A stretch of DNA of 64,000 bases. Origin: Candidatus Bathyarchaeota archaeon (GTDB lineage Archaea; Thermoproteota; Bathyarchaeia; TCS64). A program made the translations under genes and the position numbers. The notes under the pieces were generated by a model. It was not told where the DNA came from and made no database searches. It saw nothing but the letters and a program-made list of their open reading frames with translations. Position 1 is the stretch's first letter; each line of letters opens with the position of its first letter. The stretch spans positions 10,330 to 74,329 of the forward strand of contig JADGNG010000070.1 of the NCBI GenBank assembly GCA_017883585.1. The letters are read 5' to 3'. Below are positions 30,464 to 33,034 of this stretch, piece after piece.

Positions 30464-30691
30464 TTATGTGGAAAGTCTTCCCTTTCCGACCTGCGACTCG
30501 AAGCTGATCTTACCACCCTGGGTCTCAACTGCTCGACTGCAGTAGGTGAGCCCAAGCCCCATTACCCCCGACTTCGTCGTTAAGAGGGGAAAAAATACCT
30601 TCCTACTCGATTCTCTCTGGATGCACACGCCTGTGTCGGAGACGGAAACCCTGACGGCAGGCTCTGGAGTCTGGGGGTCAGCGAGGGTCAC
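30464..30691 (-). pseudogene. remnant of a sensor histidine kinase (C-terminal HATPase_c G1/G2 boxes only)
   Basis: VSVSDTGVCI (G1 DxGxG), FFPLLTTKSGVMGLGL (F/G2 boxes) and GGKISFESQVGKG match the 3' end of HATPase_c. There is no HisKA or N-box, and only about 40 nt separates it from the next gene. Confidence 0.6.
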
Positions 30692-31791: not shown

Positions 31792-32194
31792 ATGAGCCAG
31801 AAAAGTGCGGAGACGCGCTTACTACTTGTGGACGATGACGCCACCCAGCTCCAATTGCTTGACATTTCACTCGAGAGAATCGATGAGTCGTTTACGTTCG
31901 AACAGACCAGCTCCTGCGAGAAAGCGCTCGAAATTATATCCCGATGGCCATTCGACTGCATCGTCAGCAACTACACGATAGAACAGGATTAGCAGTATGG
32001 AGCTCTGCTAGAGACTGAGGGTCGACGGGTACGACACGCCCTTTATCCTTTGTACATGTCAGGACGACGAGAAGGTTATCAAGAATGCGCGTTAGGTAGG
32101 GGTCGATGACTGTATCCAGAAGGAGCCGAGCTTAGCCGTCCACATCGTGCTTGAGGAGAGGATCAAAAGCCTAATTCAGAAATGTGGGGTTTGA
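31792..32194 (+). pseudogene. response-regulator receiver domain gene, disrupted by a frameshift and in-frame TAG codons
   Basis: The first frame gives RLLLVDDDATQLQLL...EKALEIISRWPFDCIVSNY and stops at TAG 31990. The +1 frame continues ...SSMELC*RLRVDGYDTPFILCTCQDDEKVIKNAR*VGVDDCIQKEP...LEERIKSLIQK, which is the rest of a REC domain with two TAG stops. Confidence 0.65.
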
Positions 32195-32257
32195 CCCCTT
32201 TATATTGTCGTGATTTTTCCCGGATAAGTCAAATAAGCGACGGTGATCCATAATCGT

Positions 32258-32600
32258 TTCACGGCCCCGGGAAAACCGCTTTTGGTCTCAACGCCCCGTG
32301 ACAATATTTACTGCGATGCGACAAAGAGTGGATAACGTTTTCCACTCGCAATCTGCGCCGATGAACCATCCGCGCAACAGAGCTATCAAATACGATCCGG
32401 GTCGCCCACTCATCGTAGCGCGGGGAGTCCATGAGGCCGGAGGAGCCCAGCCATGCCGAGAAGCGAGGCACGGGAGGAACGAAGCCCTTAGGTAGGTCTG
32501 GGGAAACTCCAGTGGGTGGTGAAGGGGGTAAGCGAACCGGGAGACCGAAATCCATTACCTTCTCAGACTACGAACATAGACATCGCCCCGTGCTACGCTT
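32258..32600 (+). ncRNA. candidate structured ncRNA; RNase P RNA-like motifs, identity unconfirmed
   Basis: There is no credible ORF here, only short overlapping ORFs on both strands. Hairpins: 32259-64/32296-301; 32326-32/32341-47 (7 bp perfect, extended by 32317-19/32348-50); 32355-75 (8 bp with 1 mismatch); 32498-32512. Long-range helices: 32415-25 GUAGCGCGGGG with 32586-96 CCCCGUGCUAC (11 bp including one G-U), and 32458-63 GAGAAG with 32559-64 CUUCUC. Purine motifs on the plus strand appear in RNase P order: AGUCC right after the closing helix, CACGGGAGGAACGAAGCC, GGUGAAGGGGGUAAGCGAACC (like CR-II/CR-III GGUGAAA..GGUAAGAGC..ACC), and ACGAACAUAGACAUCGCCCC (like ACAGAAC..GGCUUAUCGCCCC). 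The canonical GAGGAAAGUCC and ACAGAA are not intact. Confidence 0.3.
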
Positions 32601-32621
32601 AACATCAGGGGTAGTTATGCA

Positions 32622-32954
32622 ATGATGAGACCGAGAGGATGGACCGAGCAGGAAGTCAACACTCTACGAAGACTGTACCCAACCATAGCTACGCTCACAG
32701 ATCTCCAGAACAGCATCCCCTCAAGGAGCCCGAACTCGATACGCATCATGGCGTCCCGGCTCGGCCTAAGGAGACCCGACCTGCTAACCGGTATAGAGAA
32801 GGCGGGTGAGATCAAGACCTCCGCTTCCGTTGGTGGCGGTGTCCTGGTCAGGTGCAGCAGGTGCGGAGGGTGGGTCGGCGTGGCATCCGCTAAGGCGAAT
32901 GGCAGCATAATCGTCTGCGAGAACTGCGGATGCATCAGCCACGTCCGTGCATAG
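32622..32954 (+). CDS. small protein with N-terminal SANT/Myb-like helix bundle and C-terminal zinc ribbon
   Basis: GWTEQEVNTLRRLYP...NSIRIMASRLGL resembles a Myb/SANT repeat. The C-terminus has CSRCGG...CENCGC (two CxxC pairs). Confidence 0.4.
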   Translation: MMRPRGWTEQEVNTLRRLYPTIATLTDLQNSIPSRSPNSIRIMASRLGLRRPDLLTGIEKAGEIKTSASVGGGVLVRCSRCGGWVGVASAKANGSIIVCENCGCISHVRA

Positions 32955-33034
32955 AGGCTTCATCAGTTACTACAGGCTACCACTTCATACCCTTTTTATA
33001 CCAAGAGTCCATTGTCAAAACGAGGAGTTAGGCG

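Follow-up and report, generated by a model that had tools for sequence, protein, structure and literature searches.

A clade-restricted, partly structured non-coding element upstream of a Myb/GcrA-like zinc-ribbon gene in Bathyarchaeia: a candidate mRNA leader

Introduction

Few cis-regulatory leader RNAs, such as the thiamine pyrophosphate (TPP) and fluoride riboswitches, are known in archaea, and few orphan structured RNA motifs come from archaea. For Bathyarchaeia, we found neither a cis-regulatory nor an orphan structured RNA reported in the literature. Here we describe a conserved non-coding element in a 64,000-nucleotide (nt) stretch of genomic DNA (the window) from an uncultured Bathyarchaeia archaeon. 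The element lies in the gap (32196–32621, 425 nt) between a decayed receiver gene and an open reading frame (ORF) for a protein of 110 amino acids (aa). An original prediction, made from the window sequence alone, placed in this gap either a divergent or reduced RNase P RNA, its lead reading, or a different structured RNA. We propose, with a probability of roughly 45%, that the stretch is the ~390-nt untranslated 5′ leader of the mRNA for the 110-aa protein, a Myb/GcrA-like zinc-ribbon regulator, in one group of Bathyarchaeia.

The closest described systems are the riboswitch-type and protein-responsive 5′ leaders. As in these, the element lies on the same strand as a gene and directly upstream of it, and includes a folded domain that is closed by one helix beside the ribosome-binding site and contains a GNRA-type loop, a possible pseudoknot and two mutually exclusive, covarying hairpins, the anatomy of an expression platform. 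Unlike them, it precedes a gene for a putative transcription factor rather than a metabolic or transport gene, half of it is conserved in sequence but not in fold, a conserved sequestration of the ribosome-binding site was looked for in it without success, it has no match in Rfam, and at ~390 nt it is far longer than most riboswitches. With candidate structured RNAs of the Weinberg/Breaker type, the element shares the way in which it is recognised, solely through conserved and covarying positions in the intergenic regions of uncultured organisms, as well as a consistent gene association; it differs in coming from Bathyarchaeia and in being absent from Rfam 15.

Conservation and gene linkage

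In the window sequence alone, the helices of the element are barely above chance. Folding of the 343 nt between 32258 and 32600 gave a minimum free energy (MFE) z-score of −2.65 for the plus strand and −1.21 for the minus strand, and 11% of dinucleotide shuffles hold an uninterrupted stem of at least 12 bp (G-U allowed). Because this single-sequence argument is weak, the case rests on comparison with relatives.

The 110-aa protein has close relatives, at 78–99% identity, on metagenome contigs and in metagenome-assembled genomes (MAGs), and on every contig that reaches far enough, the DNA 5′ of the orthologous gene aligns with the gap; the relatives fall into three groups, with identities of 89% (426 nt aligned), 80% (327 nt) and 78% (133 nt). 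The element is also present, in the same gene order, at three more distant loci, L024, L025 and L026, where the protein identity is 56–60% for two and, by inference, ~48% for the third. The upstream neighbour varies: it is PAC2 directly in lineages L005, L006 and L014, DUF4349 in L009–L013, and the receiver pseudogene in the window lineage only. The linkage to the 110-aa gene is kept in 11 lineages across these three different upstream neighbours. Thus, the element travels with the 110-aa gene and not with the response-regulator remnant.

The conserved blocks of the element are 71–84% identical to those of the three most distant relatives, compared with 64–83% for the flanking genes and 43–65% for the unconstrained spacer between PAC2 and the TATA box of the element. 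The 3′ half is much less conserved than the 5′ half, with 35–51% identity to the distant loci. There is one copy of the element per locus, and no further copies were found in the window. The pattern of invariant blocks was matched in 2 of 185,579 species genomes (GTDB) and on three metagenome contigs, figures that are lower bounds given that a pattern search misses diverged copies. No match was obtained among IMG/VR viral contigs, searched by pattern, or in phage and plasmid collections, and a virus or plasmid origin was accordingly dismissed.

The original prediction had seen no credible ORF in the gap, and we agree: a 98-aa ORF on the minus strand and 64- and 65-aa ORFs on the plus strand have no Pfam match, and the relatives carry stops or have lost the starts. 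A small ORF beginning MNHP (from 32361) was considered and rejected, its ATG being lost in L014 and its frame ending after 10 codons in L026 and 12 in L016; its variable sites are distributed 4/4/5 over the codon positions in a by-eye reading of the alignment, with no third-position excess. All six frames across the element carry stops, and none is open across lineages. By these comparisons, the element is non-coding, real and clade-restricted.

Secondary structure of the 3′ domain

The 3′ half of the element (32414–32597, ~184 nt) is always closed by a helix, P1. The features of this domain are listed below.

32414–32425, plus strand: 5′ strand of P1, CGTAGCGCGGGG, pairing with 32586–32597.
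32485–32504, plus strand: hairpin PA, CCCTTAGG / loop TAGG / TCTGGGGA, recognised by covariation.
32497–32513, plus strand: hairpin PB, TCTGGGG-AAA-CTCCAGT, recognised by covariation; this is the CUGGGG/CUCCAG hairpin of the original prediction.
32524–32562, plus strand: helix GGGGGTAA/TTACCTTC around a small hairpin, CGG-GAGA-CCG (32538–32547), capped by a GNRA-type tetraloop; recognised by eye.
32568–32579, plus strand: small hairpin Ps, CTAC-GAAC-ATAG, recognised by covariation; it holds the ACGAAC motif noted earlier.
32586–32597, plus strand: 3′ strand of P1, CCCCGTGCTACG, pairing with 32414–32425 and ending 9 nt before the Shine-Dalgarno sequence.

Relatives were compared in an alignment (A5) of 14 sequences from 11 lineages, built with MAFFT. 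For P1, 84% of the alignment cells are paired, 5 of the 12 pairs have changes on both sides, and the duplex energy has a mean z-score of −2.45 relative to shuffled partners. This helix had been predicted as GUAGCGCGGGG (32415–25) / CCCCGUGCUAC (32586–96); it is present in the window, with 11 bp including one G-U or 12 bp when C32414-G32597 is added, and its conservation in relatives, with changes on both sides, bears the prediction out. PA is paired in 90.3% of the cells, with 5 of 8 pairs changed on both sides and a mean z-score of −2.3. PB, predicted as CUGGGG-AAA-CUCCAG at 32498–32512, is likewise confirmed, being paired in 90.8% of the cells (mean z-score −2.25), with one pair (columns 345–353) that switches between A-U in 6 sequences, G-C in 5 and G-U in 2. 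The 3′ strand of PA doubles as the 5′ strand of PB, and hence the two hairpins are mutually exclusive; each has double changes of its own (columns 334–341 and 328–348 for PA, 345–353 for PB). Ps is paired in 76.9% of the cells, and the pair of its stem that is A-U in the window (columns 423–430) is G-C, G-U or U-G in relatives.

Taken jointly, P1, PA and Ps are paired in 84.9% of the cells, as opposed to 39–50% when the partners are slid by 1–3 columns; with PB in place of PA, the value is 84.7%. Double changes affect 11 of the 24 pairs of P1, PA and Ps, compared with 5.5±1.5 in shuffles, and this count was reached by none of 500 shuffles; in the tool's own trials, this measure was rarely exceeded through relatedness alone. 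G-U pairs make up 40 of 317 cells and would be A-C mismatches on the minus strand, so that the RNA is read from the plus strand. On this comparative evidence, the secondary structure of the 3′ domain (P1, PA, PB and Ps) is supported by covariation, which is not the case for the 5′ half.

The remaining pairings of the domain fare less evenly. The outer helix GGGGGTAA/TTACCTTC is poorly supported column by column; the tetraloop within it reads GAGA, GGGA, GAAA or GUAA, as judged by eye, in 8 of the 11 lineages, and L025 has GGGCGUC-GAGA-GGCGCCC. The long-range helix GAGAAG (32459–64) / CUUCUC (32560–65) of the original prediction can be formed, but the partner of CUUCUC is ambiguous, with GGGGAG fitting about equally well. 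A direct repeat that had been noted, CGCCCCGUG, does exist, as a 12-nt repeat with 92% identity (32289–32300 and 32581–32592), each copy of CGCCCCGUG being the 3′ strand of a helix in the window; it is not retained in relatives, in which the first copy is not kept.

The possibility that these are chance hairpins in decaying DNA, for example in the remains of the output domain of the response-regulator pseudogene, would fit the presence of decayed two-component genes nearby and a window-only fold that is barely better than shuffles. However, the receiver domain is complete (profile positions 2–100 of 111) before 32196, the element is present in relatives without any response-regulator remnant, it is as conserved as coding genes and shows compensatory changes, and no frame is open across lineages. 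The comparative sequence data already refute this explanation, and we give it a negligible probability. The second of the two original proposals, a structured RNA other than RNase P RNA, agrees with what is observed, namely, a conserved non-coding element of the plus strand in which several helices covary; for this proposal compensatory changes exist, whereas for RNase P no model match was found.

Comparison with known RNA families

The window was searched by cmscan against Rfam 15 (4227 families, including RNase P and signal recognition particle, SRP), and there were no matches at the gathering score in the 64 kb. A relaxed search of 800 nt (E≤10) returned three noise-level matches, to two snoRNA models and a frameshift element, with 12–15 bits against gathering scores of 43–64. 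The RNase P, RNase MRP and SRP models had no match at E≤10 with permissive filters in 32000–32800. None was seen at E≤5 in five homologous loci either (L017, L018, L024, L025 and L026), which added only two noise-level Rfam matches. The Archaea_SRP covariance model, likewise, had no match in the window or in the five homologues. The element belongs to no known RNA family.

A box C/D sRNA was considered separately. Such RNAs have a C box (RUGAUGA) and a D box (CUGA) near their ends, internal C′/D′ boxes and guides of ~12 nt. The best match, to sR39, has 12.5 bits (E=2; gathering score 50) and requires a 20-nt insertion; the boxes, CGAUGA and CAGA, are degenerate and lack conservation, and the would-be D′ region is the least conserved one. 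This candidate was rejected.

RNase P RNA is universal and essential, and in it conserved region V (CR-V, ACAGAA) pairs with conserved region I (CR-I), the 5′ strand of P4, forming the P4 pseudoknot. With the archaeal forms (RNaseP_arch, RF00373; RNaseP-T, RF02357), the element shares a terminal closing helix followed by a segment, GGGRAGUCC, that resembles CR-I (GAGGAAAGUCC), purine-rich joining regions, a GNRA-type loop, a possible pseudoknot and a similar size, with ~184 nt for the 3′ domain compared with ~200 nt for type T. The likeness to CR-I is a resemblance only: the segment that directly follows the 5′ strand of P1 reads GGGRAGUCC in most lineages, GGGAAACUC in L024 and GGGGGGUGU in L026. 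The ACGAAC that had been aligned with CR-V is the stem end and loop of the covarying hairpin Ps, where its A takes part in a pair that varies between lineages (A-U, G-C, G-U or U-G), the counterparts in relatives being GCGAAU, UCAAAC, CCGAUC and GGGGAC. The RNase P-like motifs of the original prediction are therefore not conserved as motifs, and the element has no conserved CR-IV or CR-V and no conserved P4-type pairing.

Further, none of the RNaseP_arch, RNaseP-T, bacterial or nuclear RNase P and RNase MRP models matched the window or the five homologues at any threshold tried (gathering score, E≤10, E≤5), and the limitation of the element to a few close lineages and its position as a gene leader speak against this assignment. 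In archaea, the five RNase P proteins accompany a standard RNase P RNA. According to a survey of archaeal genomes, Bathyarchaeota encode the complete set of five canonical RNase P proteins (PMC4919917), a further point against a divergent or reduced RNase P RNA at this locus. With no covariance-model match, no conserved motif, a narrow spread and a gene-leader position, the lead reading of the original prediction falls, and RNase P is effectively excluded.

Putative promoter and leader position

The signals that flank the element on its two sides are the following.

32199–32206, plus strand: TATA box TTTATATT, putative promoter of the element, conserved in every lineage that reaches it.
32226–32234, plus strand: block B1, AAGTCAAAT (consensus GAGTCAAGT), ~25 nt past the TATA box, from the alignments.
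32607–32612, plus strand: Shine-Dalgarno-like AGGGGT, 9 nt before the ATG, conserved in 14 of 14 sequences.

The TATA box keeps a fixed distance to the next conserved block, independent of whether the upstream neighbour is PAC2, DUF4349 or the receiver pseudogene, and B1 would be the region of the transcription start. A similar sequence, GAGTCC-TTGTCAA, follows the TATA box in the promoter of the CBS-domain gene farther downstream. The Shine-Dalgarno sequence reads GAGGT in most relatives. The 90 nt before the ATG contain no TATA-like element; where other genes in the window have a recognisable TATA box, it lies 19–49 nt before the start codon, and in one case at 77 nt. Given that it has no promoter-like element of its own within 90 nt, transcription of the gene would have to come through the element. 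The interval from P1 to the gene carries no T-rich terminator. At 32993–33000, 3′ of the gene, a T5 run overlaps the conserved CBS TATA box, and thus the 110-aa gene is probably transcribed alone with its leader. The simplest reading would be a one-gene transcription unit with a ~390-nt leader, which would be exceptional for this genome, where leaderless or short-leader mRNAs are otherwise used.

The conserved TATA box could instead belong to a free-standing non-coding RNA gene, whose product would act in trans or in an RNA-protein particle and would be either processed from a co-transcript or made with reading through. The long, near-invariant single-stranded blocks described below, as expected of an RNA that base-pairs with or binds other molecules, and the compact P1-closed domain with its GNRA-type loop would suit such an RNA, and no conserved pairing of the ribosome-binding site was found that would tie the fold to translation. 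The lack of a T-rich terminator between P1 and the gene, a gene that has a Shine-Dalgarno sequence but no promoter-like element within 90 nt, and the strict linkage to one gene in 11 of 11 lineages argue otherwise, and the motifs of blocks B2–B4 occur nowhere else in the 64 kb, so that no local target is evident. We consider a free-standing RNA unlikely.

The downstream protein

The gene that follows the element encodes a small protein with two domains.

32622–32954, plus strand: 110-aa protein, assigned by structure model and profile; three-helix Myb/SANT/GcrA-like domain at the N terminus, C4 zinc ribbon at the C terminus.

In the AlphaFold model (mean pLDDT 66.5, ~80 in the N-terminal domain), three helices form a bundle, which a disordered linker joins to a beta zinc ribbon. 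Superposition of the bundle on the Caulobacter GcrA DNA-binding domain gives a target-normalised TM score of 0.79–0.85 and a root-mean-square deviation (rmsd) of 1.4 Å over 45 residues, and the bundle also superposes on Myb repeats; the E-values of these structure matches are weak. Judging from the model, the protein is most likely a nucleic-acid-binding regulator. A profile search found 1198 representatives at E≤0.001, in which the full-length homologues have 107–116 aa and many family members are large proteins with 5–14 copies of the N-terminal domain. A second search yielded at least 204 protein clusters, several with sources named Bathyarchaeota or Bathyarchaeia and some with Pfam Myb or GcrA domains.

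As a separate observation, the ~50-aa N-terminal domain (consensus W-T-x-x-E...L...Y...S-I-R...A-S-R-L-G-L) occurs in 3–14 tandem copies in hundreds of proteins of 150 to more than 1000 aa. These tandem-domain proteins are an unexplored repeat-protein family related to Myb/SANT/GcrA domains.

Conserved blocks of the 5′ half

In the 5′ half (~32228–32413), near-invariant blocks are split by variable spacers. The features of this half, and the candidate partner of one of its blocks in the 3′ domain, are as follows.

32276–32290, plus strand: block B2, CCGCTTTTGGTCTCA, nearly invariant in the alignment; candidate 5′ strand of a long-range pairing with 32432–32443.
32300–32325, plus strand: block B3, GACAATATTTACTGCGATGCGACAAA, nearly invariant in the alignment; it holds a second TATA-like sequence, AATATTTA.
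32326–32347, plus strand: variable hairpin GAGTGGA-TAACGTTT-TCCACTC, from the window fold; the second hairpin of the original prediction.
32360–32396, plus strand: block B4, GATGAACCATCCGCGCAACAGAGCTATCAAATACGAT (GATGAACCATCC..GCAACAGAACCATCAAATACGAT), nearly invariant in the alignment.
32432–32443, plus strand: segment T, TGAGGCCGGAGG, candidate partner of B2, from a duplex test and the alignment.

B2 is unique in the window, its other matches with up to two mismatches being at chance level; B3 occurs once in the window (expected 0.00), as does the core of B4, GCAACAGAACYATCAWATA (expected 0.01). B4 is 73–95% identical to its counterparts in relatives, comparable with the flanking coding genes (64–86%). 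The three consecutive hairpins predicted in this half (32259–32301, 32317–32350 and 32355–32375) can be drawn in the window at exactly these positions; as conserved structure they do not hold, being retained in the 14-sequence alignment in the closest relatives only. The hairpin at 32326–32347 has one pair changed from U-A to G-C in L016 and is degenerate or absent in L017, L018 and L024–L026.

B2 may contact the 3′ domain. Its complementarity to segment T extends over 12 contiguous pairs in the window and 8–12 elsewhere among the 10 lineages compared (mean z-score −1.65 relative to shuffles), with one U-A to C-G double change in L026 and three changes in L018 that stay wobble-compatible, both read by eye from rows misaligned by MAFFT. 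The contact would make a pseudoknot; these data are suggestive only.

Independently, a part of B2, CUUUUGGUCUCA (32279–32290), is complementary to codons 2–5 of the 110-aa gene, UGAGACCGAGAG (32626–32637), over 12 bp with two G-U pairs, and this pairing holds in several close relatives and in L025. It is absent in L014, L024 and L026 although B2 is unchanged (L014, L024) or nearly so (L026), and is probably incidental.

High conservation without a conserved fold is also what one would expect if the 5′ half acted at the DNA level, as a second promoter (AATATTTA, 32303–32310) with operators, possibly for the Myb/GcrA-like protein itself, leaving only ~32330–32621 as a structured 5′ untranslated region (UTR). 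The TATA-like sequence within B3 is invariant (AATATTTA or ATTATTTA), the downstream protein has the DNA-binding fold described above, with Pfam Myb and GcrA domains on its relatives, and promoter spacers are conserved in this clade. However, the ~120 nt of near-invariant sequence go far beyond what a TATA box and an operator need, and the first TATA box and B1, which lie ~100 nt further upstream and are equally conserved, would be left unexplained. The 8–12 bp of complementarity that B2 keeps to a segment of the 3′ domain in 10 lineages would be relevant only if B2 were transcribed, and AATATTTA is not in the C-rich/T-run context of the two clear promoters seen here. A DNA-level role of this half thus appears improbable, if far from negligible.

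Genomic context

Among named organisms, those closest to the window in protein and DNA sequence are MAGs that carry the label Candidatus Bathyarchaeia or Bathyarchaeota archaeon. To the left, the gap is preceded by RadA, two small ORFs, PAC2 and then a CheY-type receiver pseudogene (31792–32195); to the right, the 110-aa gene is followed by genes for a CBS-domain protein, a Mut7-C RNase, AMMECR1 and a glycosyltransferase. No tRNA or tmRNA was found in the whole 64-kb window.

The decayed receiver gene at 31792–32195, on the plus strand, matches Pfam Response_reg over positions 2–100 of 111 (E=1e-9) when joined over one frameshift and one in-frame stop. It is confined to the lineage of the window itself (L001, L002). 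Because no receiver pseudogene is present between PAC2 and the element in L005, L006, L014, L024 and L025, the receiver gene is a lineage-specific insertion that has since decayed. On the far side of PAC2, an enlarged gap holds a 75-aa ORF on the minus strand (30464–30691) that matches the histidine-kinase ATPase domain, HATPase_c (E=1.8e-8), in its C-terminal part (positions 37–100 of 111). This ORF and the receiver pseudogene suggest that PAC2 was once flanked by an inserted two-component system, which later broke up.

The 80-nt spacer ahead of the CBS gene (32955–33034) is 60–75% conserved in the same lineages as the element. It contains CTTCATACCCTTTTTATACC, in which a T5 terminator overlaps the TATA box, followed by GAGTCC-TTGTCAA and GGAG. 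The GAGTC...GTCAA after the CBS TATA box resembles the motif after the TATA box of the element, and the two may represent a clade-specific initiator signature.

Discussion

If the element is the leader of the 110-aa gene, transcription would start ~25 nt past the TATA box at 32199–32206, and the transcript would extend to the Shine-Dalgarno sequence and the ATG at 32622, meeting neither a terminator nor another recognisable promoter close to the gene. Blocks B2–B4, apparently single-stranded, would be recognised by a trans-acting factor, in the simplest case the DNA- or RNA-binding product of the gene itself. The ~184-nt 3′ domain closed by P1, with its GNRA-capped hairpin and the mutually exclusive PA and PB, may switch conformation upon binding of a factor or ligand, with the pairing of B2 just inside P1 adding a pseudoknot, and such a switch would set the translation or the stability of the mRNA.

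Several observations weigh against the element being such a leader. Where transcription starts, that it continues into the gene and how stable the RNA is are all deduced from sequence. The 5′ half has no demonstrable conserved fold (mean MFE z-score −1.2). A helix closing this half (GGUGAUCC/GGGUCGCC) shows compensation by eye but has a mean z-score of −0.11 relative to shuffles, with pairs from the same lineage no better than cross-lineage pairs, and a B2:B3 helix proposed by RNAalifold is broken without compensation in L024–L026; both were rejected. Promoter-containing spacers are fairly conserved in this clade (60–75% for the spacer between the 110-aa and CBS genes), so that part of the 5′ half could be a DNA-level signal. 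In the 3′ domain, L026 lacks PA and PB altogether, many helices pair G-rich with C/U-rich strands and thus promiscuously, and across lineages we found no conserved pairing that sequesters the Shine-Dalgarno sequence or the start codon, and no common partner for them. Finally, the family is narrow, with 11 lineages, and the covariation comes from few independent events.

The original prediction was right on structure and wrong on RNase P, and the hairpins of one sequence would not have sufficed to tell. The bolder version of the leader proposal, a new class of archaeal regulatory RNA in the form of a pseudoknotted, switching ~390-nt leader that would control the regulator by sensing either a metabolite or the Myb/GcrA-like zinc-ribbon protein itself, is in our estimate unlikely. 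To our knowledge, a switching leader would be the first such element for Bathyarchaeia and among very few in archaea.

Among uncultured archaea, Bathyarchaeia are one of the most abundant groups in sediments and peat. A long, conserved and partly folded leader would be an outlier in this genome and would point to control of a transcription regulator at the RNA level. The regulator belongs to a family, the Myb/GcrA-like zinc-ribbon proteins, that occurs widely in the phylum, with at least 204 clusters. If confirmed, the element would provide a concrete target for the study of gene regulation in organisms that are not yet cultured.

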